Source of the DNA: Planctomycetota bacterium
GTDB lineage: Bacteria > Planctomycetota > UBA1135 > UBA2386
DNA length: 64,000 bases
Reading direction: 5' to 3'
Assembly: GCA_965228735.1 (NCBI GenBank)
Contig: OZ245838.1
Span: forward strand, 1,248,001 to 1,312,000
Part shown: positions 32,354-49,800 of the stretch, piece after piece
How positions within the stretch are numbered: the first letter of the stretch is position 1
How the letters are laid out: each line of letters begins with the position of its first letter
Made by a program: the position numbers and the translations under genes
The notes under the pieces: model-generated
Seen by the model: the letters and a program-made list of their open reading frames with translations, nothing else
The model's database searches: none
What the model was told of the DNA's origin: nothing

Positions 32354-32438
32354 GCCGGAGTGGCGGAATCGGCAGACGCACAGGTTTCAAAAACCTGCGA
32401 GGTAACTCGTGCGGGTTCAAGTCCCGCCTCCGGCACCA
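32354..32438 (+). tRNA. tRNA-Leu(CAA), integration site
   Basis: GCCGGAG acceptor stem, anticodon arm CAGGT-TTCAAAA-ACCTG, long variable arm, GTTCAAGTCCC, CCA. Confidence 0.97.
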
Positions 32439-32440
32439 TT
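32386..32440 (+). repeat. attL core (3' part of tRNA-Leu)
   Basis: TTCAAAAACCTGCGAGGTAACTCGTGCGGGTTCAAGTCCCGCCTCCGGCACCATT, identical to 49746-49800. Confidence 0.95.
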
Positions 32441-32503
32441 CATTGACTGACAACGACTTACGAGCGCTTCGCGACTCGTTTGCGAGGCGGCCGGAAGCAT
32501 CCC

Positions 32504-32524
32504 GGGGGCAAATCTGGGGGCAAA
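32504..32524 (+). promoter_or_regulatory. Putative integrase arm-type sites (GGGGGCAAA x2)
   Basis: GGGGGCAAATCTGGGGGCAAA; a near-identical pair lies at 49596-49617. Confidence 0.7.
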
Positions 32525-32564
32525 GCCCTGGCCTCACTCGGGCCCGCTCCCCATCATCCGGGGC

Positions 32565-33740
32565 ATGGTTGGAGCCAAGAAGAAGCGGGCCCGTCGCGGC
32601 CGTTCCGCTCTTCCCTCGAACGTCGAGCAACACCGCGGCCGATACCGCGGACGGGTCATGCGCAACGGCACGACCTACCGCTCGCACACGTTCGCGACTG
32701 CCGAGGAGGCGGCCGACTGGGTCGAGCACTTCGAGGAAGCGGACGCCGCGGCCGACAACGGCGCGCCGCTGTCGTTGCTCGGCGCGATGGAGCTGCTGAG
32801 GCGCGAGCAGATCGCGAACGGCCTCCGCCCCGCGTCAATCGACTTCACCGAGCAGAAGTACGCGATGCTCTGCCGCGCCTGGCCGGAGTCGACCTACCTG
32901 CACCGCATCGGCGCACCGCAGGTCATGAGCTACATGGTGAAGCGCCGCGAGCAGAAAGCCGGCGCGCAGACCATCCACCACGAGGTCTCGCTGCTGAAGC
33001 GACTGTTCCGCATCGGGAAGCGGTACCGCCGCCTGCAGCGCTCACCCTTCGACGACGGCGCCGTCCGGCTGCCCAAGGTTCGGAGCAAGCGCTTCGACCA
33101 CCTCCCCCGCGAGCAGCTCGACACGTTCCTCGAACGCATGCGGAACGCGGCCGGCGATGACCCGAAACGATCCTGGGAGGCCGACGTCGTCGAGTTCCTG
33201 TTCCTGACAGGCCTCCGGCGAGCCGAGCTCGCGCGCCTTCGCGTTGACGACGTCGACCCGTTCCGTGGCCAGGTCACCGTCCAAGCGAAGACGGATGACG
33301 CGCAAGTCGTGCACCTGGCCGAGCGCACGAAGCCGATCCTCGGCCGACTGATCGCCGCGGCCGACTCCGACGGCTTCTTGATCCCGACTCCGCAGAAAGA
33401 CCCGAGCAAGGTCGAGAAGTCGCGGGCCAACAAGATCACGCACATCGTCATGCGCTGGAAGGACGAGCTCGGCCTCAAGCTGCACGGCGCCGCGCACGTG
33501 CTCCGGCATTCGTACGGCACGGAGCTCGCGATGACGCCGGGCATGCCGTTCCCGCTGGCGCAGCGCAGCATGCGCCACAAGACGCCGGCGATGACCATGC
33601 GATACTTCCACGAGGCCGGCGAGAACATGCGCGCCGCGGCCGAGGCCGTCGCGAACGGCGAGGCCTTCGAACCGAACACGCCTCGAGCGAAGAAGGGCCG
33701 CAAGAAGACCGTGGCGGCGAAGAAGTCGCGTTCGGGGTAG
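32565..33740 (+). CDS. Tyrosine integrase
   Basis: Catalytic set present: TGLRRAEL (R), AKT (K), HVLRH (HxxR), MRHK (H), MTMRY (Y). Confidence 0.93.
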   Translation: MVGAKKKRARRGRSALPSNVEQHRGRYRGRVMRNGTTYRSHTFATAEEAADWVEHFEEADAAADNGAPLSLLGAMELLRREQIANGLRPASIDFTEQKYAMLCRAWPESTYLHRIGAPQVMSYMVKRREQKAGAQTIHHEVSLLKRLFRIGKRYRRLQRSPFDDGAVRLPKVRSKRFDHLPREQLDTFLERMRNAAGDDPKRSWEADVVEFLFLTGLRRAELARLRVDDVDPFRGQVTVQAKTDDAQVVHLAERTKPILGRLIAAADSDGFLIPTPQKDPSKVEKSRANKITHIVMRWKDELGLKLHGAAHVLRHSYGTELAMTPGMPFPLAQRSMRHKTPAMTMRYFHEAGENMRAAAEAVANGEAFEPNTPRAKKGRKKTVAAKKSRSG

Positions 33741-33857
33741 AACCAGTCGCGGGGCAACAGCCGCCGCTGATCACGGCGACTGGGCGAGCTCACGTTCCAC
33801 CGAGCTCGCTGCCCCTATTCACGTCAGTGATTGGTGGGACGAGCACGGAGGTGGAAC

Positions 33858-34652
33858 ATGGAGGCAAGCGAGAGGCTGTCAGACGCTGCGCCGCGACTCC
33901 TGTCAGCGTTGCGGACGTACCTTGATGCGCTTCGCGAGTACAGGACGAGTGCAAACCGGTCGGTGGACGAAGAGAACCACGTTCGGCAGCGGATCGCGCG
34001 CACCTACGAACGCGAGGCCCCACCTCCACTGGATGAGAATTCCTGGGTCGAGTACATAGCCGCGCTCCGAGCTAGAGCCGAAAGCGAAGCGAAGCCAGTC
34101 CTCGCCGCTTGGAAGCCGTTCGACCGACTGTTCCGCGAAGCGCGTACGCGGCTCGCTGGCCTGCATCACAAGCCGTGGTTCCAGCTCGGAGAGAAGGTTC
34201 ACCCAAGTGCATCCGCGGCTCTGCATGAGCTAGCGGAGTTCGTTGTTGGCGGGATTCAAACCGGCCCCGAGTGCGTGCTCAGCTGGCACAAAGGCACTGC
34301 CGACTCAAGGGATCTCCGCGTCGGTCTCGAGGTCGAGCTCGCATCGTTTGATCGCGAAGAAAGCTGCGGCATTGAGGAGACCGACGAGAAAGCGGAAGCT
34401 CAGCTTGCTCACCTCGGTGCTCGGGAGGAGGAGGTTCTTCTCGCTCTCCTCGACGCGAAGGAAAGCGGCGCTCACGGCACCAAAACGGAGGCGCTACGGA
34501 GATTGGGTGATCCGAGGCGTGCGCTGGACCGCCTTCGTACAGCTGACCTCGCCGTACAGGTCGGCAGCGGCGACTCGAAGCGTGGAGTGTGGAGGCTGAC
34601 CCCCCTCGGCGTGAGAGTGGCGGCTCTGCTCAAGACCAACCTCCGTCAGTAG
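33858..34652 (+). CDS. Hypothetical protein with C-terminal winged-helix-like domain
   Basis: C-terminal EEVLLALL...RRALDRLR...GVWRLTPLG resembles wHTH; atypical codon usage. Confidence 0.55.
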   Translation: MEASERLSDAAPRLLSALRTYLDALREYRTSANRSVDEENHVRQRIARTYEREAPPPLDENSWVEYIAALRARAESEAKPVLAAWKPFDRLFREARTRLAGLHHKPWFQLGEKVHPSASAALHELAEFVVGGIQTGPECVLSWHKGTADSRDLRVGLEVELASFDREESCGIEETDEKAEAQLAHLGAREEEVLLALLDAKESGAHGTKTEALRRLGDPRRALDRLRTADLAVQVGSGDSKRGVWRLTPLGVRVAALLKTNLRQ

Positions 34653-34723
34653 ATCCTCGACGGGTCGCGAGGAACGGCGAAGGCGCGCCCTCCCGATCCT
34701 TCGGCTTGCTCAGATCGCACGCG

Positions 34724-35415: not shown

Positions 35416-35460
35416 GTCGGCGATGCTCCACGTCCGCGCTGACGAGCGGGAGGATGCGCG

Positions 35461-36966
35461 ATGCTCGACCGTAGGGCTCGCACACCCGCTCTCCGCGACC
35501 TGCTCGTCGGCCACGACCCAACGTGCTCGGCCGAGGCGACGCTAGTTCTCGCCGCGCGCGCCGCATTCGGTGGGCTGCTCGCAACGGGCAAGCCGATGCC
35601 GGGCGCAGCACCGCGCGTGCCGACGTTGCGCGAGGTTGCGGCCGAACTCGGCCTTTCGTTGGACGCGGTCCGGCGAGCCGATCACGAGCTGATCGAGCGC
35701 GGCCAGGTGTTCGTCGACGGCGCCGGCGACCGCCGAGTTTGCCCACTCGCCATGTCCATTCGGTGGTCCGACCACCGTCGCCGAGTCCGTCTGCCGGCCG
35801 TCGACCGTGAGCGTCGCATGAAGGCGCGCGCTCTGCTCCTCACTGGGCTCTTGCACGGGCAGCTGGACCGCCGCAGCGGGCGTCTCGCGCTCGGACTCGC
35901 CTACCTCGGTGAGCGGCTTGGGATGCCGCGACGGACCCTTCAACGAGCTCTCGCGGCGGCTGAGGAGGCTGGGGCCCTCCATCGCTGGACAGCGCCAATC
36001 GGACAGGGCCAACTGTTCCTGGCACCAGGACCGTCGAGAATAGGCGCACGAGATGGTTCGAGAACAGGCGCACGAGAAGGTGCTGCCTCGACGGAGTCCA
36101 ACGTCGCATCGGCCGAGCGTCGAAACGAGGCGCCGGTCGACGCCGAAAAGGGGCGCAACCCCCGTCCAAAGGAGGCGCACCCCCATGGCGAAACAGGCGC
36201 GCGAAACACGGATTGCCCTCCGGAGTACCCTCCGGATTCACCCTCGGACGCGCGCGCGCTCGCGCGCGGTCAGACCTCGCCCCTGGCTCGAGGTGACACC
36301 AGAGCACGTCGGGACCGAGAGCGGCGGCGCCAGGTGCCGGCCGACGTGCGAACGGTCGGCGGCGCATGGGCGACCCGCCTGATCAGCGATGGCCGTGAGC
36401 GGCTGGAGTCCGACGATGCACCGCAGCTCGCCGCGCTCCTCGACGCGCTCGAACCGCCCGAGTCCGACCCCAAGGTTCGCGATGCGGCGGCCGTGCGCCG
36501 GGAGCGACTGGCCTTTGCCCGCCGCGCCATCCGGTGGGAGCCGTCGCCTGAGCGCCTGGCGCGCTGGCTGGCGGTCGCGGTCCGCCGCTACGGCGTCCGG
36601 CGGGCCGGGGCCTACCTGCGACGGGCGGCCGAACGTGGCGACTCCGGCACGCTGCTCGGCCGCCGCGGCGCCGGCGGGCACGCGCTCGACCCTGATCACG
36701 AGGTCGCGCTGCGTGGACCACGCATGCGCGAGGTTGATGACATCGTCGCCGGCGGGGTGGCCGTCCTCGGTGCGCAGCTCGATGAACGAGCGCGTTTGCG
36801 GCGCGATCTGGCACACCTGCTCGACGTAGGCGACCGACCAGGCGCGCGAGTCGTTCTGCTTCGACTGCTCGGTGATCGGAGTCCAAGCGACACGCTTGCA
36901 TTGGCGCGCGCCATCGAGGGCAGCGGCGTCCCGATCACGCTCGCGCGGGAGGTCCTCGCGGCATGA
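35461..36966 (+). CDS. Putative replication initiator with two winged-HTH motifs
   Basis: PTLREVAAELGLSLDAVRRA..LIERG and YLGERLGMPRRTLQRAL..EEAG; central low-complexity linker containing DNA repeats. Confidence 0.6.
   Translation: MLDRRARTPALRDLLVGHDPTCSAEATLVLAARAAFGGLLATGKPMPGAAPRVPTLREVAAELGLSLDAVRRADHELIERGQVFVDGAGDRRVCPLAMSIRWSDHRRRVRLPAVDRERRMKARALLLTGLLHGQLDRRSGRLALGLAYLGERLGMPRRTLQRALAAAEEAGALHRWTAPIGQGQLFLAPGPSRIGARDGSRTGAREGAASTESNVASAERRNEAPVDAEKGRNPRPKEAHPHGETGARNTDCPPEYPPDSPSDARALARGQTSPLARGDTRARRDRERRRQVPADVRTVGGAWATRLISDGRERLESDDAPQLAALLDALEPPESDPKVRDAAAVRRERLAFARRAIRWEPSPERLARWLAVAVRRYGVRRAGAYLRRAAERGDSGTLLGRRGAGGHALDPDHEVALRGPRMREVDDIVAGGVAVLGAQLDERARLRRDLAHLLDVGDRPGARVVLLRLLGDRSPSDTLALARAIEGSGVPITLAREVLAA
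36034..36250. repeat. Iteron-like repeats inside the putative replication gene (possible ori)
   Basis: 24-bp tandem pair TCGAGAA(T/C)AGGCGCACGAGA(T/A)GGT at 36034-36081, further AGGCGC copies, and CCCTCCGGA x2 plus CCCTCGGA at 36216-36248. Confidence 0.55.
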
Positions 36967-37205
36967 CTAGCAACCCGTCTCGAAGTGTTCTCCGCGCCCA
37001 GCTTGTGAAGGCCCTCGATCGCGGTGATCGAGCCGAAGCGGAGCGCTTGCAGGTCCTCTTGCTCGCGGAGCTGCGAGCAGCGTGTCCGAGGTCGACGCCG
37101 CGAACGAGATCGCCATTGGCAGCCAGCATGGCTTCGCGAGGCAACGGCCTACAGCGTCATCCCCTGCGCCTCGTGCCAGACATCGAGAAGGGAACAGGCT
37201 CGTGA
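36963..37205 (+). CDS. Small hypothetical protein
   Basis: ATGA/GTGA coupling on both sides within the element operon. Confidence 0.45.
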   Translation: MTSNPSRSVLRAQLVKALDRGDRAEAERLQVLLLAELRAACPRSTPRTRSPLAASMASRGNGLQRHPLRLVPDIEKGTGS

Positions 37206-37462
37206 TCGTCGACCCCGAACAAGCTCGTGAGCAACGCGAGGAGATGCGCCAACGCCGCGCCGACCCTGCGGTCGACGTCGCTGTGCGCCGCCGCTGGCTC
37301 GCCCTGGCGCGCACCGACGGGTACTCGTTCGAGCAGATCGCCGAGCTCGACGGCGAACCCGTGTGGCGGATCCGTGATGCGGTGCGGCTGCAGCTCGAGC
37401 TCGATGAGCGGCCAGCGGCGGAGGTCGATCGAGTGCTGGGACGAACGGAGGAAGCGCGATGA
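37202..37462 (+). CDS. Small HTH protein
   Basis: GYSFEQIAELDGEPVWRIRDAVR HTH-like; coupled start and stop. Confidence 0.55.
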   Translation: MIVDPEQAREQREEMRQRRADPAVDVAVRRRWLALARTDGYSFEQIAELDGEPVWRIRDAVRLQLELDERPAAEVDRVLGRTEEAR

Positions 37463-37971
37463 CGCTCTGGCGACGACAGGCTATCGCTGAAGCGACGTTC
37501 GCGATCGCACCCGTGAGCCCATTCGTCGGGCCAGTGCTCATCGCGGTGTTGGTGGCCGAGCTGCTTCGGTGGAGAGCTCAGACGAGGATACGTGCACGGC
37601 AACAGGCTCCTGCCCCGGCCTTGTGTCCGGGCGCAACGAGGGAACGTCCCAGTCGTGCGACCGTGAGCAGCTGCGCCAACTGTGGCACGCTGTTGGAGCT
37701 CGCCGCCGAGGGAACGTGCGAAGACTGCAAGCACGGTCCGAGCGGTGACTGGATGCCGAACGCGGCATCCGAGTGCCGTGGCTGCGGCCAGATCGCTGAG
37801 TGCTCGCCGAGCCGGCTCTGCCAGTCGTGCCTTGGGCTCATGCTCACGTTCGCGCCATGGAGGGTCCACGCTCGGATGAGACGTGCGCACCGCGGCGGGG
37901 ACCACGCGGAACACCAGCTGCAGCTCGGCGTGCTGCGTTGGTCGGTCATGCCGTGGAGGGCCGGAAAGTAA
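37459..37971 (+). CDS. Cys-rich putative zinc-finger protein with N-terminal hydrophobic segment
   Basis: CANC, CEDC, CRGC, CQSC motifs. Confidence 0.5.
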   Translation: MTLWRRQAIAEATFAIAPVSPFVGPVLIAVLVAELLRWRAQTRIRARQQAPAPALCPGATRERPSRATVSSCANCGTLLELAAEGTCEDCKHGPSGDWMPNAASECRGCGQIAECSPSRLCQSCLGLMLTFAPWRVHARMRRAHRGGDHAEHQLQLGVLRWSVMPWRAGK

Positions 37972-38165: not shown

Positions 38166-38269
38166 ACGGGTCCCTTGTCCGGATTCGAAGTGAGTACGTG
38201 GGGGCGGGCTCAACCGCTCTCGGAGTTTGCAGCGGCCCGAAGTGGGGTTGTTGTTTCACCTTCGGGCCG
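38166..38269 (+). other. Putative lambda-like cos packaging site
   Basis: ACGGGTCCCTTGTCCGG...TACGTGGGGGCGGGCTC resembles lambda cosQ-cosN (ACGGGTCCTTTCCGG...TACGGGGCGGCGACCT); 10-bp inverted repeat at 38233-38269; directly upstream of terS. Confidence 0.6.
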
Positions 38270-38293: not shown

Positions 38294-38860
38294 ATGCCGC
38301 GCCAGGCGCGCTTCGCCCTCTCGCAGGCCGATATGGCGGCGATCGTCGGTCGCTCGCTGACGACGATTCGGAAGCACATCCATGCGGGCTGCCCTGTTCC
38401 GCGTTGCCGGAGCCGCATCTTGCGCTGGGTTCGCAGCTATCACGCCTGGTGCGCTCGCAACGGAAAGGCATCGAGCGACTCTCGTGAGCCCGACTCCGAG
38501 ACTCGGCAGGTCGCGATCGAGCTGAACGGGCTGCGCAGCCAGTTGATGCAACTGGAGCTCGACAATCGCCGGTCCAGGCTGATCGAGCGGCAGGCCGTCA
38601 TCGACTACTGCGAGAGCGCTGTGCGCGCGCTGCGGGCTCGGCTCCAGACCATCCGTCGCAGGCTCTCGTCCCGCCTCGAGAACTGCACCGCCGACGAGGT
38701 CGACAGCGCGATCAGGATCGAGTTCGACGCGATGTGCGACGACTTCGCCGAGGGAATGACGGGCCATGACCCCGGCCGACCCAACGGAAAGCACGAGAAC
38801 CCTGCTGCCCCGGAACGTCCGGCGGCTGCAAGCCAACCACGACAGGACGACGAACGATGA
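38294..38860 (+). CDS. Terminase small subunit, lambda gpNu1-like
   Basis: N-terminal wHTH (LSQADMAAIVGRSLTTIRKHIHAGCP), coiled coil ending ELDNRRSRLIERQAV...RARLQTI. Confidence 0.72.
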   Translation: MPRQARFALSQADMAAIVGRSLTTIRKHIHAGCPVPRCRSRILRWVRSYHAWCARNGKASSDSREPDSETRQVAIELNGLRSQLMQLELDNRRSRLIERQAVIDYCESAVRALRARLQTIRRRLSSRLENCTADEVDSAIRIEFDAMCDDFAEGMTGHDPGRPNGKHENPAAPERPAAASQPRQDDER

Positions 38861-39543
38861 AGAAGACGACACCCAAGCGGAGCGCGCTCGGCGCGTTCCT
38901 CGATCAGTTCCGGAAAGACCGCAGCGAACGCGGCAAGAGTGACCTCTCGCGATGGTGGGCGGTCGCTGGCGACCTGGCTGCCGGCCGGAAGCCGAAGATT
39001 TCGACGACCGAGATGGCCGAGCTCTCGATCGCCATCGACCGCCCGCCGTCCGAGCTCGAGGCCGACGTGGCCTTGCTCACGCAGCTTCACATCGCGAACG
39101 AGGCCGCCACTGGCCTCGAGAAGGCGAAGGAATCGGTCCGCGAGATGCGACGCGTGCAGGAGAAGGCCCACGCGAAGGCCGCCGAGCTCGAGCGTGAGAT
39201 TGCGCGGATCCGCGGTGAGGCCGACACGGCGCTCGAGAGATCGAAAAGCACTGTTCGCCGGGCGGAGAAGGGTGCCGAAGATGCTGCGCGACTCACCCGC
39301 GACCTGGCGAAGCGCGGACATCCGGGCAGCGTCGAGGCGATCCAGGCCCGCGAAGCAGCGGAGGAGCCCGAGCGGCTTCTCGGTCAGTTGCGCTCGCTGC
39401 GAGCTGGGGTGAACACCAGTGGGACGCAGAGCCGCAGCCAGCGAATCGCAGAGGTCACACAACGGCTTCGCGAACTCGGCGTCCCGATCCCGCCTGACCC
39501 ACGGTTCGAAACGAGCGGCGCGACCGCGGCGGAGGCATCCTGA
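38857..39543 (+). CDS. Helical coiled-coil hypothetical protein
   Basis: 228 aa, translationally coupled to terS and to the protease. Confidence 0.65.
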   Translation: MKKTTPKRSALGAFLDQFRKDRSERGKSDLSRWWAVAGDLAAGRKPKISTTEMAELSIAIDRPPSELEADVALLTQLHIANEAATGLEKAKESVREMRRVQEKAHAKAAELEREIARIRGEADTALERSKSTVRRAEKGAEDAARLTRDLAKRGHPGSVEAIQAREAAEEPERLLGQLRSLRAGVNTSGTQSRSQRIAEVTQRLRELGVPIPPDPRFETSGATAAEAS

Positions 39544-40892
39544 TGCCACGGGCGTCATCGCGCGTGCTCGAGTTCGCTTCCCGGCGGTGCTGGGCGATCG
39601 AACCGGACTTCTTCCGTCAGATGACGGCAGTCCTGGCTGGTCGCGCCGAGGGGATCAAGCTCTCCGATTCGGAGATCGCGGCAGCGATCGGCCGTCCCCT
39701 TGGGGGTGACAAGCCCGAGTCGTCGATGCAGGTGAATCGCGGCACCGCTGTGATTCGGATCCATGGAGTGATCGCGCAGCGAGCCAGCGCTGTGCACAAC
39801 ATCTCGATCGGCGCCGGCACGAGCGTCGAGCACATTCGCGCCGACCTGCAGCGCGCGCTGCGCGATCCGAAGGTGCACGCGATCGTGCTGGACATCGACT
39901 CGCCTGGCGGCGCTGTCGACGGCATCACCGAGCTCGCCGAGGATCTGCGTCGTGCGCGTGATCGCAAGCCGATCGTCGCGCACACGGATTCCCTGATGGC
40001 GAGCGCTGCCTACTGGCTCGCGGCGCAGGCGAACCGGGTAGTCGCAACTCGATCTTCTCGTGTCGGCAGTGTAGGCGTGATCGCTTCGTTCCTCGACGAC
40101 CACCGCGCATTGTCGAACCGCGGCTACGACGAGTTCGTCGTGAAATCGACGCCCGGCAAGAGCATGCGCCAGGCCACCGGCACGATCAGCGAGCAGTCCG
40201 TGTCGGACCTGCAGCGCGAGATCGACACGTTCCACGCGATGTTCGTCGCGGACATCGCGGCCGGCCGAGAGATCACGGCCGAAGCAGCGGCGGCGATGGG
40301 CGACGGACGTGTCCGACTGGCCGACGAGGCGCTCTCGGAGGGCTTCATCGACGAGGTCGGCGGTCTTGCCGACGCAATCGCATCCGTATCTGTGCGCGGT
40401 GGTCGCGGCGGCCGCGCGGGATCAAGAACCACAGCCGCATCCAACACCAACCACCGACACCAAGAACCGATGACACAAAGACACGAATCACCCGCGGCGA
40501 GCGACGAGCGCGATCGCGCCAGCGCGATCCTCGAGGCCGCAGCTGACTGCCAGGTCGCACTCGCGACCGAGCTCATCCGCAACGGAACGGACCTGGACGA
40601 GGCGCTCAAGGCCATCACGGCCGATGCCAAGAGGCGCATCGAACGGCAAGCGCCTGCCGCGAATGAGCCGATCGGCCTCGGCAACAGCTCCGAGGTGTTG
40701 CCGAGGGGTCCGAGCTCCACCGACGCCATGCCTGCAGGCCCCGGCAAGTGGGACGCGGAGTGGAACAGCGATCCGGATCTGCGCGCCGAGTTCGGCAACG
40801 ACAAGGAGAGCTACTTCGCCTTCATGAAGGCGGGCGAGGCGGGGCAGATCGTGCTCACGCGTAGCCGCCCCGCGGACGCCGAGCCGTTCTGA
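39543..40892 (+). CDS. S49-family prohead protease with C-terminal scaffold-like region (lambda gpC/Nu3-like)
   Basis: WAIEP, VLDIDSPGG, MASAAYWLA, VGSVGV, GFIDEVG; C-terminal ERDRASAILE..LATELI and WNSDPDLRAEFG. Confidence 0.85.
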   Translation: MPRASSRVLEFASRRCWAIEPDFFRQMTAVLAGRAEGIKLSDSEIAAAIGRPLGGDKPESSMQVNRGTAVIRIHGVIAQRASAVHNISIGAGTSVEHIRADLQRALRDPKVHAIVLDIDSPGGAVDGITELAEDLRRARDRKPIVAHTDSLMASAAYWLAAQANRVVATRSSRVGSVGVIASFLDDHRALSNRGYDEFVVKSTPGKSMRQATGTISEQSVSDLQREIDTFHAMFVADIAAGREITAEAAAAMGDGRVRLADEALSEGFIDEVGGLADAIASVSVRGGRGGRAGSRTTAASNTNHRHQEPMTQRHESPAASDERDRASAILEAAADCQVALATELIRNGTDLDEALKAITADAKRRIERQAPAANEPIGLGNSSEVLPRGPSSTDAMPAGPGKWDAEWNSDPDLRAEFGNDKESYFAFMKAGEAGQIVLTRSRPADAEPF

Positions 40893-41345: not shown

Positions 41346-43433
41346 ATGACCGAAGCACGCACCCTCAACATCAACCTGAAGCTGCGCGACGAGCTCTCGC
41401 GGTCGATCAGCCGATCTCGGCAGGCGATCAAGACGTTCGCGACTGCAAGCCGCAACTCACTCCGACGGGTCCGGACCGCCGTCACAGGGCTCACCAAGAC
41501 CATCTTCAGTCTGAAGACCGCGGTTGTTGGCCTCATTGGCGCCAGCGTGATCGCGGGCTTCAAGTCGCTGTCCGACAGCATCGATCGCGTTGCGAAACAG
41601 GCGAAGGCGATCGGCGAGAGCCCCGAGAATCTCAGCGTCCTCGAGGCCGCGTTTGTGCAGGCTGGCGGATCGGCTGATCAGTTGCGTTCGATTCTCAGCA
41701 ACCTGACGAAGGCCTCCCAGTCGGCGCAGGACGAAGGGTCCGCGGCCGCGGAGGCGTTCAAGAAGCTCTCGATCAGCGCGACGGATCTGCGCGACTCGTC
41801 GCCGGCGGCGCTCATCGAGAAGATGGCGGCCGGCCTGGAGAACTTCAACGACGCGGGGCAGCGCGCGCAGGTTCTCTCGCAGATCCTGCCCGAGGGCTTC
41901 GTGCAGATTGGCCCGCTGATCTCACAGGGGCTCGACGACTTCCAGAAGCAGATCGAGCGTGTGCGGAAGCTGGGCGCTGAAGTCACGAGCGAGCAGGCGC
42001 GAGTCGCTGAGGCCGTTTCTGGCGCGTTTGGCGAAGTGAGGATCGCGCTGCAGGGCATCGGCAAGCAGGTCCTCGTCGCCTTCGGGCCTGCCACCGTCGC
42101 CGCCCTCGAGGCAACTGCCGAGTTCCTTGCCGAGAACCGTGACACTGCGCGGCAGGTCGCGGTCGCGGTCGGCGAAGGCGTGGTGACCGCCTTTCGGCTC
42201 GCGGTGCAGGCGGTGATCGGCCTGGTACGGACGATCGAGTCCATTCCAGGCGTGAAGCTCATCGACCTCGAGGAGACCGAGCGCGACATCCGAGCGATCG
42301 AGCGCAAGCTGCGGATCATCGACGAGGCTCGCAACGGCACCCTGAGCCGGCAGGCAGCCCGCGTGCGCGAGCTCGCGAACGCTGATCCGTTCGGAGGCCT
42401 CGGCAGCAAGAACGTCCGCCGTGCGCGGAGGGAACTGCCAGGCCTCGAACGCGACATCGCGCGCGCTCAGGATGACAACCTGGTCGAGCAGCTCGTCGGC
42501 CGGGAGTCGGAGCTTCGACGGAGGCTCGACGAGCTGCGCACGATCGCGAACGGTGGTCTTGCGGCTCAGCTCGAGGACATGCGGAGCACGATCGCGCAGA
42601 GCATCGGCAGCGCTGTGGCGGACGTGCGGAAGCGGGTCGCCGACAGCGACTCGCCGAGCTTGATTGACAGCGTTCTCGGCACCGTGGAGGTGATGCGCAA
42701 GCGCGGCGAGAAGCTCGTATCCGTGTTCAAGAAGACGGCGACGGACGCGGCGAACGCAGTGAAGGCCATCGTTCCCAACGCGAAGAAGGAGAAGGAGGAC
42801 GACAAGAAGAAGGACCCGGAGCCTCTCGGCTTCGAAAAGAGCCTCCAGAACGCGCTCAAACGATCGAAGGACATCATCGCGGACTTCAGCGGCTTCGTCG
42901 GCCGATCGATCGGCCAGGTCGCGGAGCGCAGTCTGGACTCGTTCGCGAATCAGTTCGCCAACGTCGTGACCGGAGTCAGGAACGCGAAGGAGGCATTCCA
43001 GGACTTCGCCCGCGCGTTCCTCGCCGACATCGCGAGAATGATCGCGAAGTCGATCGTGCTCGGAGCAGTCAAGACGCTGTTCAACCTGGCGGACGGCGGC
43101 GTCACCGCACCGGTCGACGAGACACGACCCGTTCGCGCGTTCGCGCGCGGCGGCGTCGCGCGGCGACCAACGCTGGCGGTGTTCGGCGAGGGCCGCAACG
43201 CGGAGGCGTTCGTTCCGTTGCCGGACAACCGCAGCATCCCGGTGACGTTTACCGGCACAAGCGGCGACGGCATGGGTGGCGGCGTCGTGAACCACTTCCA
43301 CATCAACGCGATGGACAGCCAAGACGTCACCCGCGTGCTGACGGATCACCAGGGCGTGCTGCGCAACATCTGGCACGCCCAGGTCGAGACGCGCGTCGGC
43401 ACGCGCCAGGCGATCCAGCGAGCCGCGCGGTGA
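41346..43433 (+). CDS. Phage tail tape measure protein
   Basis: Helical Ala-rich 695 aa; N-terminal LNINLKLRDE, SIDRVAKQAKAIG; C-terminal FARGGV.RPTLAVFGEG..AEAFVPL..NHFHINAMDSQD. Confidence 0.82.
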   Translation: MTEARTLNINLKLRDELSRSISRSRQAIKTFATASRNSLRRVRTAVTGLTKTIFSLKTAVVGLIGASVIAGFKSLSDSIDRVAKQAKAIGESPENLSVLEAAFVQAGGSADQLRSILSNLTKASQSAQDEGSAAAEAFKKLSISATDLRDSSPAALIEKMAAGLENFNDAGQRAQVLSQILPEGFVQIGPLISQGLDDFQKQIERVRKLGAEVTSEQARVAEAVSGAFGEVRIALQGIGKQVLVAFGPATVAALEATAEFLAENRDTARQVAVAVGEGVVTAFRLAVQAVIGLVRTIESIPGVKLIDLEETERDIRAIERKLRIIDEARNGTLSRQAARVRELANADPFGGLGSKNVRRARRELPGLERDIARAQDDNLVEQLVGRESELRRRLDELRTIANGGLAAQLEDMRSTIAQSIGSAVADVRKRVADSDSPSLIDSVLGTVEVMRKRGEKLVSVFKKTATDAANAVKAIVPNAKKEKEDDKKKDPEPLGFEKSLQNALKRSKDIIADFSGFVGRSIGQVAERSLDSFANQFANVVTGVRNAKEAFQDFARAFLADIARMIAKSIVLGAVKTLFNLADGGVTAPVDETRPVRAFARGGVARRPTLAVFGEGRNAEAFVPLPDNRSIPVTFTGTSGDGMGGGVVNHFHINAMDSQDVTRVLTDHQGVLRNIWHAQVETRVGTRQAIQRAAR

Positions 43434-43530: not shown

Positions 43531-43565
43531 GCCTGCGCCGGTTCGCCGGCGCGGGCTTTTCTTTC
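43531..43565 (+). terminator. Rho-independent terminator after the tape measure gene
   Basis: GCCTGCGCCGG-TTCG-CCGGCGCGGGC hairpin followed by TTTTCTTT. Confidence 0.75.
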
Positions 43566-43590
43566 CTCGAGCTTCTGAGCTGCCAGTGCC

Positions 43591-43797
43591 ATGAACGACG
43601 ATCCCGAACCCGTCCGAGCCATCGTGCCATTCGTTCCGTTCGAGTGCCCGACCTGCGGCCGCAAGAAACCGGAGACGTACGGCGTGCATCGACGAATCCG
43701 CTACCACCGGTGCACGGCTTGCGGGATGCGGTTCAAGAGCCTGCAGGTCCCGCCTCAGGCCGTGCACGGGTTCATGCGGCCGCGGCCGCACGCGTAG
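43591..43797 (+). CDS. Ogr/Delta-like zinc-finger protein
   Basis: 68 aa; FECPTCG...RIRYHRCTACGMRFKS. Confidence 0.6.
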   Translation: MNDDPEPVRAIVPFVPFECPTCGRKKPETYGVHRRIRYHRCTACGMRFKSLQVPPQAVHGFMRPRPHA

Positions 43798-44065: not shown

Positions 44066-44236
44066 ATGAGAAGTTCCGTATCCGCGCGCCGTGACGCGCG
44101 CAACGCCGCTGTGGCGGCAGAACTCGCCCGCAGCCTGTCGTGGCTGCCCCGCCGATCGATCGCGCTGCAGGCCAGCGCCAGAGCCGCCGTCGTGGACGCC
44201 CGCGGGCGTCGCGTAGCGTCGGGAGGTGAGCGATGA
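44066..44236 (+). CDS. Small hypothetical protein (56 aa, below the ORF-track cutoff)
   Basis: AGGAG RBS then ATG 44066; MRSSVSARRDARNAAVAAELARSLSWLP...GGER; stop overlaps next ATG. Confidence 0.5.
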   Translation: MRSSVSARRDARNAAVAAELARSLSWLPRRSIALQASARAAVVDARGRRVASGGER

Positions 44237-44886
44237 GGGTGCAGCGATGGGGTGATCCGATTGCGTCGCCGGCAACGGAGTCGAACATCAAGGCGCCTCG
44301 CATCTGGCCGCCGTCGCGTGACGCCGAGGTTCGGCTTGTGCGCCGGGATCAGATCACCTGGGCGATCGAGTACGATTCCCGAGTCGTCGCGCTGCGCGAT
44401 GTCCTCAAGGCAGCATCGAACGACCGCGACGCCGCCGAGCACGCCAGGGCCTGGAGCGTGCTCGGTCAGCTGACCTGGTCGCAGCGCGACGTCGAGCAGC
44501 TCGTCGACGCGCTCCACGAATACCGGGATGTGAACGCCTGGGAGTTGGTGCCGCTCCTCGCGCCGCTCGCAGTCAGGCACGGCGAGATCATCGCCAGGCT
44601 GTTCCCTGATCATCTCGATTGGAGCGTGGCTGCGCTGTGTGGGCGAGCCGGCGTTGTCGCAGCAGAGCGGGAGCTGCGGAGCGGGAACCCGCATCGTCGC
44701 GGCTCAGCGATCGGCATGCTGGACGCCGCGCTGGAGACGGGCTGGCGCGCGGACAGAGCGCTCGTGCTCGAGGCGCTGGCTGTGGAGAGGAACACGGACA
44801 ACGTGGACACGCTCCAGGCTCTCGCCGACGCGCTCAAGCCGCGCGGAGAACCGAACCGGCACGATGAGGGGCACTCCGATGCCTGA
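44233..44886 (+). CDS. Hypothetical helical protein (HEAT-like)
   Basis: 217-aa ORF with GGAGG RBS; helical repeats at the C-terminus. Confidence 0.55.
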   Translation: MRVQRWGDPIASPATESNIKAPRIWPPSRDAEVRLVRRDQITWAIEYDSRVVALRDVLKAASNDRDAAEHARAWSVLGQLTWSQRDVEQLVDALHEYRDVNAWELVPLLAPLAVRHGEIIARLFPDHLDWSVAALCGRAGVVAAERELRSGNPHRRGSAIGMLDAALETGWRADRALVLEALAVERNTDNVDTLQALADALKPRGEPNRHDEGHSDA

Positions 44887-45148
44887 CCGCGAACCGGCCT
44901 ACATCAAGCTCGAGGACCTCGCGCACGACCTGCAGGTCGACAAGTCGATCCTCGTGCGCCGTTCTCGGCTGGGCAAGTTCGTCAAGATGACCGAGATCGG
45001 CCCCGGCATCTGGCGGATCCTGCGCACGGACTGGGACGAGTGGCTGCTCGACAACTGCACGCACAACGCCGGCAAGATCGCGGGCATCACGGCAGCTGCG
45101 GTGAACGGCACTATCCAGAACCCGCGGCCGAGGAACCGAGGCCTGTGA
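44879..45148 (+). CDS. Excisionase/AlpA-like HTH protein
   Basis: YIKLEDLAHDLQVDKSILVRRSRLGKF...WRILRTDWDEW. Confidence 0.7.
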   Translation: MPDREPAYIKLEDLAHDLQVDKSILVRRSRLGKFVKMTEIGPGIWRILRTDWDEWLLDNCTHNAGKIAGITAAAVNGTIQNPRPRNRGL

Positions 45149-45442
45149 CCGACTTCGGCCATGACCACGAGCTACTGACGCTGGAGGAGGTCGCCGCCTA
45201 CCTCCGCGTCGACAAGGCGAAGCTCGTCCAGATGTCGCGATGCGGCAAGTTCCCAGGCATCCTCGAGATCACGACCCGCGAGAAGCGCGTGCGGCGCGCC
45301 GAGTTCGAGGAGTGGGAAAGCGGACCGCTGGAGCTCGAATGCGATCGTGCTTAGCGCGCTCACGAAGGCCGCGATCAACGGCACGCTGCCGATGAATCGG
45401 CAGGCGAACAGCCGGAACAACCGATCTCGGCGGCGCGGGTAA
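45145..45442 (+). pseudogene. Excisionase-like HTH paralog with apparent +1 frameshift at about 45317-45319
   Basis: LLTLEEVAAYLRVDK..GKFP; in-frame stop at 45354, but the shifted frame continues NAIVLSALTKAAINGTL, matching the upstream paralog's NAGKIAGITAAAVNGTI. Confidence 0.6.
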
Positions 45443-45459
45443 CGGCGAACTCGGCCGGC

Positions 45460-46257
45460 TCAGCGCATGATCGCATGCGGCCCCATGAGGTAGAATTCGC
45501 TCAGGAACTTCACGAACTCCGACGCTTGGACCACAAACACGGACTGTACCGAGCCTTCAGTCCAGGATGCCAGGTCGACGATTGGCTGTGCGACGTTCGA
45601 GAAGCGCGGGAACGGTTTCTCGTAGCGCAGCCAGGGGAGCTTCTCTCCCTCTTCATCGCCGTTCTCGATCTCGCCCGTGGTGAGGTTGACCTGCCCGATC
45701 TCAAGTCGCCTGAGTTCGGCATTGGTCACGATCACTGGAATGAAAGCGAACGGCTCCTCTCTTGCCTGGAACGGCACATCGCTCATCTGAGACAGGAGCT
45801 CTGCCACGACTGAATCCAGATCGTGGTTGCCCTTTCGCTCTTCGAATAGGCAGTGCTCGGCGGCCACGTCGTGGGTTGTCGAGTTGTACTCCGCCGTAAG
45901 CAAGCTGGGCGGTCCGGGGCCGCCAGGCTGTCGATACGGCACGATGGGGGTGCGCGCCCTTCGCTGCTGGCTCTTCGATGGAGCCATGAACAGCAGTCGC
46001 ATCGGGCGTTCATGGTTCTTCATCCAGTGGCGTTTAACTTCAACTGCCATCCGCGCCCGCTCGCCGTCGCCGCCTCGATAGCGAAGCACCATGTCAATGA
46101 AGCCGTCTCCGGCAGGGACCTCCTCGGCTTCGAGCTTCCAGGGATGCTGTCCGACTTTGCCGCTTAGGCTGACCCTTCGGGCCAAGTCTCGCTGGAGCGG
46201 GATGCCGGAGCTGCATGCGCGCTTGCGGTCAGATTGCCCGCCGTTGGCCGGAGTCAT
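45460..46257 (-). CDS. Putative PD-(D/E)XK nuclease-fold protein
   Basis: SGIPLQ..., FIDMVL, AVEVKR, FIPVIVTNAEL; ATGA-coupled to the upstream HEPN gene. Confidence 0.5.
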   Translation of the reverse strand: MTPANGGQSDRKRACSSGIPLQRDLARRVSLSGKVGQHPWKLEAEEVPAGDGFIDMVLRYRGGDGERARMAVEVKRHWMKNHERPMRLLFMAPSKSQQRRARTPIVPYRQPGGPGPPSLLTAEYNSTTHDVAAEHCLFEERKGNHDLDSVVAELLSQMSDVPFQAREEPFAFIPVIVTNAELRRLEIGQVNLTTGEIENGDEEGEKLPWLRYEKPFPRFSNVAQPIVDLASWTEGSVQSVFVVQASEFVKFLSEFYLMGPHAIMR

Positions 46258-46928
46258 GGCCCGCCCCGCGATTGGGGAGATCGCTGTGCGTTGCGCTTCG
46301 ACTCGAGCGAATCGACTCCTGCGCGAAGAACCTTGCACAGCGTGCTTGCGTCGCCTTCTCCGCGGGACGATTGGAAGTCCAACGGTCCCGCGCCGACCGC
46401 TCGACCAACTTCGTCGTTGTAGCTCTGCAAGTCAGCGAAGAACGCTTGAACGTCCTCGGCGCTGTGTTGCCCGAGCAACTTGGGCTTGAGGTGAACCGTC
46501 TTGTCCAGGTGTGCTCCGAGCTTGTGTCGCGCCGGCAGAACGAGCTCGCGGTAGCGCAAGAGCCCGGCTGAGGACTGTGCCATCGACTCCGTAAACAACT
46601 GCTCGGCCTTCAGCTGTTCGTTCAGGTTGTCGACAGTCAGGCACTCCTTGCCACACACGTTCGCCGGGTCTGTCAGGCGACACACGGTGACGATGATGTT
46701 TAGGTGGAGGACCTGGTGGAGCTCATTGAAGAAGTGGAACGCCGCATCCTTGAGCAGCTCTTGCCTTCGGTCGTCGTGGTAGAGGTCGACGAACGTGTTG
46801 AAGCAGTTACGCAGCCAGATGCACTGATCGCGGAATGCGTCGAACGTCTTTCGGAGGTGTGGCGATGCTGTCACTGCTACCTGGGTGTGCGGTTGAGGCC
46901 TGGGCCGTGCGCGAGGCCGACTACTCAC
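46254..46928 (-). CDS. HEPN-domain protein (AbiU2-like)
   Basis: Helical; VCRLTDP, RHKLGAH (Rx5H HEPN motif). Confidence 0.65.
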   Translation of the reverse strand: MSSRPRARPRPQPHTQVAVTASPHLRKTFDAFRDQCIWLRNCFNTFVDLYHDDRRQELLKDAAFHFFNELHQVLHLNIIVTVCRLTDPANVCGKECLTVDNLNEQLKAEQLFTESMAQSSAGLLRYRELVLPARHKLGAHLDKTVHLKPKLLGQHSAEDVQAFFADLQSYNDEVGRAVGAGPLDFQSSRGEGDASTLCKVLRAGVDSLESKRNAQRSPQSRGGP

Positions 46929-48012
46929 AGCCCCACGTGAACTTCCGCTTGAGCTGGTTCCCGTGGCTGTGTGGCCACACCCTGTCGTGCTGCAGTCGAC
47001 CAGCCACGATTCCCGGTGCGATGCCGATCTGGTCGGCGAAAGCGGCCGCAGCTCTCTTCGAAGGCGCCGGGTGCTGTTCTCGGAACTCTTGGTACTGCTC
47101 GGGAGGGATCAGCTTGTCACGAGCGAATTCATTGGCGCGGGCTTCTACGGGGTCGTCTCCCGAGTAGGAGTGGGCGTCGTCGATGAAGATCGCTTGGGAT
47201 GAGTGCTCGAGAACGTGGCATGCTTCATGAAAGAGGCTGAACCACATCTGGTCATCAGTGCGGCCCCGAAGACTCAGGTGGATTGCGGCCCGCTTCGGCC
47301 CGAACCATCGAGTCGCTCCATTGATCGAGAGCCTGGGGAGTGACGGGGTGAACGTCAGTGCGACTCCAGCTGCCGAGCACTGCGCCACGGCCTGCTTTGC
47401 GAACTCCTTCGCGGGCAGGCGGGTCATACCGCGGATGGCGCTGACGGCTTGGCTAAAGCGCGATTCGTCGTATGGCGCGCAATCGATCTGTTGAGCGTTC
47501 AGCTCTGAGAGCCTCAACCAAGCTGTGAGTGCGTGTCGGTTGGGGTGGAAGGTCGGTGACTTTCTGAACCGGGCCGTTACTGGTGCCCAAGCGGCTTGCC
47601 ACGCGTCGGGGGTTGCCACTCCGAAGAACCGAAGCAGTGCCTCAACTCGGTCGATCGCCGCCTGGCCAACGTCAGCGACGTACCCAAAGCGAACCATCTC
47701 TCTGAAGGGGAAGGAGCGCATCCACCCCGCGAAATCGCGCAGGGCAGAGCGCTCGGCCGCGCGTTGCTGCTCGGCTCGATACGCGACCTCGAGATTCATC
47801 CAGAACGTGGCAGGGATCTGTAGGACGCGCTCCAGAAGCAATGCGGTGCTGTAGCTGAGCGTGGCCTTTGCGTTCATGACTTGGCTGACGTGCTTCTCGC
47901 TCAGGCCGGTCCGGCGCGACAGCTCCGCGCTCGACATGGAGCGTTCCTCCAACGCCTCGGCGAGAATCTCGCCGGGTGGCGACAGGTCTCGGATGTCGGG
48001 CGAGTCAGCCAT
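46921..48012 (-). CDS. higA: HigA-type antitoxin: Xre HTH fused to ImmA/IrrE-like metallopeptidase
   Basis: SPPGEILAEALEER.MS.AELSRRTG..FWMNLE; WFSLFHEACH (HExxH); EARANEFA. Confidence 0.85.
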   Translation of the reverse strand: MADSPDIRDLSPPGEILAEALEERSMSSAELSRRTGLSEKHVSQVMNAKATLSYSTALLLERVLQIPATFWMNLEVAYRAEQQRAAERSALRDFAGWMRSFPFREMVRFGYVADVGQAAIDRVEALLRFFGVATPDAWQAAWAPVTARFRKSPTFHPNRHALTAWLRLSELNAQQIDCAPYDESRFSQAVSAIRGMTRLPAKEFAKQAVAQCSAAGVALTFTPSLPRLSINGATRWFGPKRAAIHLSLRGRTDDQMWFSLFHEACHVLEHSSQAIFIDDAHSYSGDDPVEARANEFARDKLIPPEQYQEFREQHPAPSKRAAAAFADQIGIAPGIVAGRLQHDRVWPHSHGNQLKRKFTWGCE

Positions 48013-48328
48013 GGTAGTCGACGATTTCAGTAATTAGGACGTGCGAGATATGACCCCAGTCGTCGCCGATGGCGACCCCCGGGGCGAGAACCGGTTTGAA
48101 GATCAATCGATACGGTCCATCCAAGGACGCGGCGAAGAACCCTGCACGGTCGCCGGTCAGCTGGTGAAAGCGGCCGGGAACGTGTCGAAGAGCTTCGAGA
48201 TTCGAGGCGGCCTTGAGTGACGAGAGTCGGCGCTTCAGCTTCTCTGCGCGATCGCGCCCAAACGCCCGAAGTCGGCTTCGGGCGTCGACGCACTGCTTCT
48301 CGAGCTTTCCGTGGAAGTCGATCTTCAC
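48005..48328 (-). CDS. higB: HigB/RelE-family toxin (plasmid maintenance killer-like)
   Basis: PGRFHQLTGDRAG, LDGPYRLIF, EIVDYHG; upstream of and overlapping higA. Confidence 0.85.
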   Translation of the reverse strand: MKIDFHGKLEKQCVDARSRLRAFGRDRAEKLKRRLSSLKAASNLEALRHVPGRFHQLTGDRAGFFAASLDGPYRLIFKPVLAPGVAIGDDWGHISHVLITEIVDYHG

Positions 48329-48419
48329 ATCGGCGTTTCGATAGAGGATCTTTACCGGATTGGTAAAGATGATTCAAGCCCCAGATGCCTCAGAGTCCTG
48401 AGCGAACTGCGCGTCCGCG

Positions 48420-48992
48420 CTACCGCCCGCGCAACGGACCACCGAGCGGAGAACCGAGAAGGTCCAGCATGCGCGAGTCCCGCCTCGGCGTTTCCTCGAA
48501 CGCGACCAACCGGCCTTCCCGGTAGCCAAGGACCTTCGCAACCGTTCGCAGAAGCTCCCTCGCGAGCGCGGACTCAGCCACGCCGAATCCCCAATCGTGG
48601 TCTTCTCCTGTGATCGGGTAGACCAGGCGGCGCCGCCCCTTGTTCTCGCCGGACTTCGTCACCGTGTAGTTGCGATCCAGCCGCTGAACGGTCTCCCGGA
48701 CTGCATCGCTCTTGAGGCTCGGGTTGAGCTCGCCGAGTCCGGACTCGAGTGCTTTGTCGAGCGCCCTGCAGAGGTCGTGCCCAACTCGCTTGAGGTCCGA
48801 CTCGCTTGCACCGCAGTGCACTAGATAGGACTTCAGCACGAGCTCGATCCCGGTCCCGAGCGCCTGTAGTAAAGGCGGCATCAGTCGGTCGTCGCAACTG
48901 CGAACGAGCTGGAAGGCTGCCGCAATGTAGAGGTCACCAAACCAGAGAAACGACTCGGCTTCCTGCCAGTCTGCAGGAACTGGATCTCGCAT
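48420..48992 (-). CDS. HEPN-like hypothetical protein
   Basis: GIELVLKSYL..GHDL pattern seen in HEPN-like proteins; no clear Rx4-6H. Confidence 0.45.
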   Translation of the reverse strand: MRDPVPADWQEAESFLWFGDLYIAAAFQLVRSCDDRLMPPLLQALGTGIELVLKSYLVHCGASESDLKRVGHDLCRALDKALESGLGELNPSLKSDAVRETVQRLDRNYTVTKSGENKGRRRLVYPITGEDHDWGFGVAESALARELLRTVAKVLGYREGRLVAFEETPRRDSRMLDLLGSPLGGPLRGR

Positions 48993-48999
48993 GGCAAAC

Positions 49000-49554
49000 C
49001 TACGCGTCGCGATGGGCGTCACGGATGTCCGAAAGGTTCGCGACGGTCCCGAAGTCGAGGCGCAACAGCGCGTCGTCAAGCAAGATGGTCACAGCGTCGC
49101 GATACGTGTCGGCTTGACGGACTCCCATGACCAACTTGTTCTCGGTCTGTTGGTTGCCCTGCACCGCTCCTTCGTACCGCGCAGCAGCGGCAGTGATGGC
49201 AGCGCTGAGCAGCGTCGCCTCCCGTTGGCTCTCTGCCGCATCCGCCTGCCGCTTCAGCTCGCCCCTCGTGTCATGGAGTTCCTGCCGCTGCAGGCGTAGC
49301 TCCTCCCGCTGGAGACGTAGCTCCGTGCGTTGCAGCAGGATCGCAACCACGACGCCGGCCAGCGCGAGACCGGAGAACAGCGCGTTGACCGCGCCGAAGG
49401 CGTCACCAAGCTGCCCGCGGGCCTCGATGTTCTCGCCGAACCAAGCGAGCACCGGCACGCTGGCCAGCCAGATGGCAATGATCGCGAGCGCCAGCACAGC
49501 GAGCCGTCCCAGGGGCAGCGCGCTGCTCCCTCCGACCTGGTCGTCCTTCGTCAT
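49000..49554 (-). CDS. Membrane protein resembling the N-terminus of putative abortive-infection proteins
   Basis: 2 TM + GQLGDAFGAVNALFSGLALAGVVVAILLQRTELRLQREEL coiled coil. Confidence 0.55.
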   Translation of the reverse strand: MTKDDQVGGSSALPLGRLAVLALAIIAIWLASVPVLAWFGENIEARGQLGDAFGAVNALFSGLALAGVVVAILLQRTELRLQREELRLQRQELHDTRGELKRQADAAESQREATLLSAAITAAAARYEGAVQGNQQTENKLVMGVRQADTYRDAVTILLDDALLRLDFGTVANLSDIRDAHRDA

Positions 49555-49595
49555 TACGGCAGAGTAACCAGCGCCAAACAGTCGCCTGGCCGCGT

Positions 49596-49617
49596 GGGGG
49601 CAAATCCGGGGGCAAAT
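49596..49617 (+). promoter_or_regulatory. Putative integrase arm-type sites (GGGGGCAAAT x2)
   Basis: GGGGGCAAATCCGGGGGCAAAT, same 12-bp period as the 32504-32524 pair. Confidence 0.7.
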
Positions 49618-49745
49618 GGTCGCCGAAACTCGACCAAACTGGCCATTCTGCCCCCGCACCCCCTCTCGTCGGCGCGCTCCCAGACACCGCTTGCTGCAGA
49701 CCTATTCCACGCATTCGCAGTTGGCTTCGCTCCCCATCGGGCTGA

Positions 49746-49800
49746 TTCAAAAACCTGCGAGGTAACTCGTGCGGGTTCAAGTCCCGCCTCCGGCACCATT
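49746..49800 (+). repeat. attR core (duplicated 3' part of tRNA-Leu)
   Basis: 55-bp exact copy of 32386-32440. Confidence 0.95.

Follow-up and report, generated by a model that had tools for sequence, protein, structure and literature searches.

This study analyzed a 64,000-nucleotide window of a Planctomycetota bacterium (GenBank assembly GCA_965228735.1, contig OZ245838.1, positions 1,248,001 to 1,312,000) and focused on an integrated element within it that resembles a phage satellite. The results revealed a perfect pair of 55-bp attachment (att) repeats spaced 17,360 bp apart at a tRNA-Leu gene, as a first-pass annotation of the sequence had described. The gene run that it had listed was also recovered between them, namely an integrase, a rep-like gene, a cos-like site, terS, a gene for a coiled-coil protein (hereafter cc), an S49 protease/scaffold gene, a decoration-like gene and a gene for a tape measure protein (TMP), with no TerL, portal, capsid or tail tube gene (Table 1). 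Two labels held in part: the product of the "Ogr-like" gene is a Zn-ribbon protein but has no Ogr/Delta Pfam match, and the two small "Xis-like" helix-turn-helix (HTH) genes exist at the left end but match no PHROG or Pfam family. The element was present as a single 17,365-nt contig in two public sequencing runs with 0 differences, so the missing virion genes are not the product of assembly collapse.

Table 1. Features of the element and its integration site (positions within the 64,000-nucleotide window; ORF, open reading frame).
Feature	Position	Strand	Remarks
tRNA-Leu(CAA), integration target	32354..32438	+	attL overlaps its 3' part
attL core, 55 bp	32386..32440	+	
Tyrosine integrase, 391 aa	32565..33740	+	PHROG/Pfam, 7e-40
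264-aa backbone gene, no assigned function	33858..34652	+	Also neighbours the integrase of related islands
Two small putative HTH genes, 86 and 143 aa	34724..35415	+	Homologs in other islands
Rep-like protein, 501 aa, N-terminal winged HTHs	35461..36966	+	
Three small ORFs, no assigned function	36963..37971	+	No PHROG/Pfam match
cos-like site with a cosQ-like motif 126 bp before terS, then G-rich candidate cosN at about lambda-like spacing	38168..38215	+	
TerS, lambda Nu1-like family, 188 aa	38294..38860	+	phrog_57, 5.7e-13
cc, all-helical coiled-coil protein	38857..39543	+	Marker of island family
S49 head protease fused to scaffold domain	39543..40892	+	phrog_53, 1.4e-77
Decoration-like gene, 94 aa	41006..41290	+	phrog_1731, 0.002
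TMP, 695 aa, intact	41346..43433	+	PHROG best 1.7e-18; Pfam Tape_meas_lam_C
Intrinsic-terminator-like hairpin, 11-pair stem and T run	43531..43566	+	3' of TMP
Zn-ribbon ("ogr-like") gene	43591..43797	+	No Ogr/Delta Pfam match
Right-end module: 217-aa gene and two HTH genes	44233..45354	+	Common to other islands
Cargo: HEPN AbiU2-like, HigB-like toxin with HTH/IrrE partner, three genes without assigned function	45460..49554	-	Lower GC
attR core, 55 bp	49746..49800	+	

We examined the absence of virion genes by scanning all six reading frames. Among the 89 ORFs of at least 110 aa, 8 were genes already annotated in the first PHROG scan and were excluded; none of the other 81 matched a family of TerL, portal, capsid, tube, baseplate or lysis proteins. 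Searches by tblastn with the TerL, portal, capsid and tube proteins of relatives' prophages revealed no remnant in the element; the only traces were a weak match of a Zn ribbon to the ogr-like gene (E 0.005) and a single match of 28 aa at chance level. No head-tail adaptor or stopper match was found in the element. A capsid or TerL hidden among the other ORFs, which the first-pass annotation had named as grounds for abandoning its view, thus appeared in neither the six-frame scan nor the tblastn search.

We further analyzed cc, the marker of the island family. A 100-row cc profile identified 21 distinct loci in the host family among the stretches examined, and 5 further loci were found in 3 of 400 genomes of the phylum. 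The search covered a single genome of each species, and matches to TerS, rep, cc or TMP decided which loci were picked; the counts are therefore not frequencies. Eleven of the 21 loci were delimited by att repeats and measured 7,516-17,360 bp; together they contained no capsid, tail tube or portal gene and one TerL gene, as well as TMP in four, S49 in two, decoration genes in two and the tail fibre gene J in one. Several of the ten other loci lie on short contigs, for which an absence holds for the seen DNA only. TMP occurred in 6 of the 21 loci and also in three islands with no detected cc (G311, G258 and G309:C405; such handles are our own labels for genomes, contigs and loci). A 13-row cc profile matched 318 clusters at 50% identity in a protein library, with no common Pfam family. 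The cc of the element was nearest to that of an 8,844-bp island (G310).

Outside the islands, cc was not matched in the examined stretches of the lambdoid prophages of G007, G152 (two), G294, G215 and G281, and it was absent from 160 metagenome or viral S49 loci (the best 80 of 470 and the best 80 of 578). The core profiles applied to these 160 loci recognise lambda-type cores only, and 69 loci with no such core were set aside. A word-based search, tblastn against phage records and an Atlas search gave no match to cc. Its predicted fold comprised a short helical hairpin and an 89-residue helix (pLDDT 92.6), which gave generic coiled-coil structural matches only (best Z 7.1), and a sequence search of the PDB returned designed coiled coils, with no Sid or Psu among the matches listed.

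The packaging region of the element resembles that of cos phages. The cosQ-like motif lies 30 bases before the cohesive end in the lambda reference. Among terS genes, 15 of 16 from islands and 9 of 10 of prophage type had this motif in the 320 bp preceding them, compared with 1 of 40 control genes, and the single positive control gene lies in a cc island; a slightly looser form of the motif occurred in 3.4% of random genome windows. In the TerS tree, the protein of the element was sister to that of the 8,844-bp G310 island, which carries neither S49 nor TMP and has the gene order terS-cc-one gene-Zn ribbon. A single clade of island TerS was rejected (p-AU 1e-6). Island TerS proteins were nested among prophage TerS proteins, and this nesting did not depend on the G074 row, a cc island with TerL. 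An island and a prophage of G215 have sequence beyond the cos motif in common, with TerS 56% identical, and on this comparison they are likely to be a satellite-helper pair.

The S49 gene of the element is intact (449 codons), and Ser154 and Lys206, which we take to be the catalytic residues, are invariant with lambda gpC. The gene has a possible internal start at 40470, and its product ends in a C-terminal motif common to prophage scaffolds. This motif was present in seven islands in up to three copies per protein and was accompanied by the protease domain in two of the seven, the motif profile containing one wrong row (a capsid tail); in two islands a podovirus-type scaffold follows the gene at the cc position instead. 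A class-wide S49 search matched 5 of 301 genomes, this genome included. The five other S49 loci comprised three complete lambdoid prophages (one in G007 and two in G152), a short contig with TerL, and an island (G237:C5). The prophages of G007 and G152 have the order terS-terL-Zn ribbon-portal-S49-capsid/decoration-tail-TMP, and the S49 of the element was nearest to that of the G007 prophage among the loci examined. The decoration-like gene claimed by the first-pass annotation is present, but not intact: it bears an in-frame internal deletion of about 50 codons that leaves 94 aa, compared with 137-146 aa, and keeps both ends. This form may reflect either decay or a deliberate shortening.

The TMP of the element grouped with that of the G294 prophage (35% identity, SH-aLRT 95), and the G+C content at third codon positions (GC3) of the TMP and S49 genes was 0.81-0.86. 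Island TMPs were full length with conserved ends and interleaved with prophage TMPs, the tree forcing at least five label changes. The TMP of a G185 island was 81% identical to that of a G215 prophage, and a G281 island (L153, G281:C170) matched its co-resident prophage (L154, G281:C101) at 80% over TMP and at 79-82% over TMP, L and J. For these close pairs (G185/G215 and G281), pairwise dN/dS over TMP, L and J was 0.24-0.36; values for distant pairs (0.4-0.75) are unreliable at this GC and were set aside. The TMP lengths of islands and their closest prophages were 684 and 683, 629 and 626, and 695 and 655 residues. Because they are about equally long, no shortened tail is predicted, and the head and tail remodelling of a lambda-like helper proposed in the first-pass annotation loses remodelling of the tail by length.

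The combination of genes recurs in part. The full five-gene set was indeed not conserved elsewhere, which the first-pass annotation would have counted against it, but cc, S49, TerS and TMP occur together in G237:C5, an island of 15,004 bp that is flanked by att repeats, lies at tRNA-Phe and has a different integrase and a homologous rep gene. The order there is cc-S49-cos-terS-TMP; the TMP has 449 aa, and no TerL, portal or capsid was found. In the phage nearest to the element the capsid gene lies between S49 and the decoration gene, and among the islands TMP was found in nine, the scaffold tail in seven and capsid or tube in none. The trees of both TerS and TMP indicate that islands captured these genes from lambdoid prophages more than once. 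Because TerS and cc are nearest to the G310 island, S49 to the G007 prophage and TMP to the G294 prophage, the element is a mosaic and not one shrunken phage, and an older island backbone most likely received the S49-decoration-TMP block between cc and the Zn-ribbon gene. By these comparisons TerS, cos and cc form the core, whereas the interchangeable cargo consists of S49, decoration, TMP and tail-tip genes.

The remaining backbone is also found in small islands. The two closest relatives of the integrase were from Planctomycetota and Phycisphaerales, and the same tRNA-Leu(CAA) is the target of a 7,670-bp island whose integrase is 68% identical to that of the element. The rep-like gene contains three short repeats at 36039, 36063 and 36192, which are likely to be iterons, and in relatives the gene contains tandem repeats of 22-24 bp at the corresponding position. 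With the rep profile, matches were obtained in 11 of 90 other host-family genomes and in none of 248 other genomes of the class. Because rep homologs also occur in prophages, rep is not a marker of the family; in other cc islands primase/DnaB genes stand in its place. Homologs of the Zn-ribbon gene follow terL in prophages and lie near cc in islands. The right-end HTHs matched phrog_66/HTH_17. The scan that gave the hairpin downstream of TMP returned 13 sites, compared with 9.6 expected by chance. The AbiU2-like cargo gene (46254-46928) is 45% identical to a homolog that closes a cc island in G237 (G237:C3), which suggests, on sequence grounds, a defence cargo common to both islands.

Several related loci were observed in addition. 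A cc island (G000:C1:1911337-1918285; L125:1337-8285) with a primase, cc, a podovirus-type scaffold (phrog_458), a small gene and its own TerL lies beside a podovirus-like prophage (about C1:1.871-1.910 Mb) and is likely a satellite of that adjoining resident. The genome of the element contains three further att-flanked islands, namely cc islands of 13,793 bp at tRNA-Asp (L011:2563-16410) and 7,516 bp at tRNA-Ala (L144:9007-16570), and an 8,280-bp island at tRNA-Gln with a 48% identical rep (L007:4289-12616); the host therefore carries at least five related islands. The G281 island L153 contains TMP, L-like, K-like and J tail-tip genes; the distal-tail gene that intervenes in the prophage was missing from the DNA examined, as were tube and capsid. 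Two cc islands at tRNA-Asp encode a full-length central tail fibre J: one of 16,929 bp (L102/L126, G199:C62) with an intact decoration gene and TerS, and one (L105, G171:C84) with a TMP immediately preceded by a cos motif, TerS not being seen there. A 17,086-bp cc island (L113:2688-19822, G074:C34) carries TerS, TerL and a cos motif, with no portal or capsid.

A 14,844-bp island at tmRNA (L043:443-15314, G154:C12), left out of the 21 cc loci because it did not match the 100-row profile, carries a rep homolog, a podovirus scaffold, a T7-like portal and a P22-type TerS, with no capsid or TerL. Another locus (L046:5392-14791, G310:C16), in tandem with the 8.8-kb cc island, has rep, another TerS family, a Neck1 gene, a scaffold-like gene and a tail protein of 1,089 aa. 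In relatives' prophages (L013:12709-16260, L019:12355-15303, L116:11015-14182), a protein of 980-1,180 aa without assigned function occupies the gpW position between terL and portal. In more distant families (L145-L149; G628, G600, G475), cc homologs are followed by proteins of 870-1,370 aa without a PHROG match, and one locus has a TMP match.

These findings suggest, with a probability of roughly 60%, that the element is a PICI-like satellite (PICI, phage-inducible chromosomal island) of a cos lambdoid siphovirus that packages its DNA through its own TerS and cos, biases the heads through its scaffold and places its own TMP in helper-built tails. The att-delimited island family, the cc marker, the cos motif and the repeated capture of helper genes favor the first-pass view of a satellite of cos-type lambdoid phages over a broken prophage. 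In the proposed mechanism, the integrase would catalyse both integration and excision at tRNA-Leu, where the att pair lies, and replication would start from the iterons inside the rep-like gene. The TerS would pair with the helper TerL and cut the cos of the element, as modelled on pac SaPIs (Staphylococcus aureus pathogenicity islands). The protease/scaffold, possibly with cc, would compete with the helper scaffold for coat protein and favor a smaller head, by the alternative scaffold logic of CpmB/Rcm (PMC5052747, PMC12409344). The TMP would replace that of the helper, at about the same length, in tails with the helper's tube, chaperones and tip, as in the PLEs (PICI-like elements) discussed below.

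The size of the element bears on this mechanism. At 17.4 kb it is about 41% as long as the prophages that relatives carry, which measure 41-43 kb (42,726, 42,015 and about 41,042 bp), and this ratio is close to the volume ratio of T=4 to T=7 heads. Three copies correspond to 122-127% of these prophages, so the first-pass proposal that three copies (about 52 kb) approximate a lambdoid genome does not agree with prophages of 41.0-42.7 kb. No att-delimited island exceeded 17.4 kb; with these prophages standing in for the true helper, this ceiling fits small-head packaging better than trimer packaging.

Several observations weigh against this interpretation. A cos helper prophage, which the first-pass annotation had proposed seeking in the same genome, was not found: searches of this genome (93% complete, single contig) revealed no GpA TerL, lambda portal or related capsid or tube, and the only prophage found was podovirus-like. 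IMG/VR scans with TerS, S49 and rep also gave no matches. No excision junction was seen in the public-run contigs, which break at the att repeat. The sequencing depth of the element was 1.2-2.3 times that of its flanks in three of four runs, and this excess is not evidence of replication because a GC-matched island of the same genome, itself a cc island, showed a similar excess in some runs. In the DNA examined, 15 of the 21 cc loci lacked TMP and 19 lacked S49, so neither is required for the family. TerL was present in 2 of the 21. No known size switch matched the cc protein in sequence or structure, and a tail assembly chaperone was not found in the element by PHROG or by tblastn with those of relatives; the gaps in the morphogenesis run are 113 bp between S49 and the decoration gene and only 55 bp between the latter and TMP. 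The dN/dS values are pairwise and not assignable to the island branch, and the TMP of the element has no close partner. The decoration deletion may be decay of a captured block. The anatomy, family and capture pattern were observed, and all interactions are inferred by analogy with SaPI TerS, CpmB/Rcm and the PLEs.

A more far-reaching form of the satellite interpretation, which we offer tentatively and regard as doubtful, is that the islands form an undescribed Planctomycetota satellite family in which cc is a new capsid-size switch. A fixed backbone would swap in low-copy virion parts matched to the helper (TerS with cos, a scaffold tail or protease-scaffold, TMP, a tail tip with J, TerL or a podovirus portal) and leave capsid and tube to the helper; the particles would be chimeric at head and tail, and an own TMP or J might open cells or lysogens that exclude the helper.

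The S49-decoration-TMP block could instead be a neutral passenger, acquired by recombination with a helper and now decaying, in a functional TerS-cos-cc satellite that makes helper-type particles. The decoration deletion, the lack of the block in most family members, captured genes that can be 80% identical to a co-resident prophage, and the failure to find a chaperone are all compatible with this explanation. We nevertheless consider it unlikely, in view of a selective capture that took TMP into nine islands and scaffold tails into seven and never capsid or tube, and of intact TMP (695 codons) and S49 (449 codons) genes with catalytic residues kept and GC3 of 0.81-0.86. Quite unlikely as well is that the captured genes serve chiefly as decoys, poisoning the assembly of the helper and protecting the host population without entering island particles. 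The multiplied scaffold-tail motif, often detached from the protease, a shortened decoration gene with both ends in frame, and the defence-type cargo would suit such decoys, whereas the presence of cos and TerS on the element itself implies that island DNA is packaged selectively, the TMPs are full length with conserved ends, and PLEs need their own TMP for transfer (PMC12987554). A lambdoid prophage reduced by deletions, the origin suggested by the late-gene order from terS through S49 and decoration to TMP, by the prophage type of four of the five other S49 loci (one a short contig) and by the scar in the decoration gene, is largely refuted and very improbable, since it needs at least four clean deletions without remnants, places the island marker cc where terL and portal are expected, and leaves unexplained the att-delimited cc island family, the different nearest relatives of TerS/cc, S49 and TMP, the small-island backbone genes on both sides and the permuted copy at another tRNA in G237:C5.

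Everything functional about the element, its comparison with known satellites included, rests on sequence comparison. Gram-negative PICIs and SaPIs have an integrase, small HTH regulators, a replication gene, terS, cos, a rightward unidirectional core and terminal cargo (PMC6092414, PMC10085698, PMC5052747), and the element likewise has an integrase with an att pair, a small terminase and a core running rightward; its scaffold may follow the same alternative logic as CpmB/Rcm. Among the regulators used to recognise PICIs (AlpA, MerR or Stl homologs), the element offers HTH family matches at its right end only; the rep-like gene is its candidate for a replication module, and S49/scaffold and cc are its candidates for a capsid morphogenesis gene. 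The element differs in having an S49 protease-scaffold fusion and an unrelated cc instead of CpmAB, Ccm or Rcm, in combining its own TerS with a cos site, and in carrying an intact TMP, tail genes being a forbidden component of the SatelliteFinder PICI model (PMC10085698). Because PICI detection rejects elements with tail genes, such islands would be missed or filed as broken prophages.

The first-pass annotation had considered the gene set to be without precedent, which the literature does not bear out, satellite TMPs being already known. PLEs of Vibrio cholerae build chimeric tails with their own TMP and redirect heads and packaging (PMC12987554), and the element likewise encodes a TMP. According to the same account, they parasitise the lytic myovirus ICP1 and keep a chaperone gene (tac) and baseplate hub, whereas the likely helper of the element is a temperate cos siphovirus, its virion genes are lambdoid, no tail assembly chaperone was found and its TMP length matches the helper type. 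EPIPs of Mycolicibacterium aichiense are likewise small, carry TerS, scaffold and TMP, and are said to lack capsid, tail and holin genes, although the text, inconsistently, also lists a major capsid protein (PMC12822802). They differ in a serine integrase, a head-tail adaptor and stopper, a size of about 11 kb and tails longer than those of the helper, and the available text mentions no S49 protease or cc; the element has a tyrosine integrase and no adaptor or stopper match. Some capsid-forming PICIs (cf-PICIs) have putative TMPs and their own packaging genes (PMC10085698, PMC12987554), but they encode capsid, portal and TerL, none of which was found in the element. With respect to the psu-delta-sid operon of P4-like satellites, cc is helical with no Sid or Psu match listed, and the Zn-ribbon gene is no Ogr/Delta match in Pfam. 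The lambdoid prophages (G007, G152, G294, G215 and G281) share homologous TerS, cos motif, S49/scaffold, decoration, TMP and Zn-ribbon genes and represent the candidate helper type; they differ in their size of 41-43 kb, in TerL, portal, capsid and tail, and in having no cc found.

The family supplies natural satellite-prophage pairs, one of them co-resident (80% over TMP, L and J). Such pairs could help to explain why a satellite encodes its own TMP without a change in tail length, a question raised by the PLE work. The family also provides cc as a new candidate size-switch protein, with 318 clusters at 50% identity and no Pfam family. We found no paper on Planctomycetota satellites or on this gene set in the open-access literature; by these searches, the cc islands are the first satellite candidates for this phylum. 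What is new is the cc-marked family, the combination of protease-scaffold and TMP (in two islands) and the evidence of repeated, selective capture of low-copy virion genes. The element would behave as a PICI that handles the tail in the manner of PLEs, but it lies outside strict membership of the PICIs, PLEs, EPIPs and cf-PICIs.

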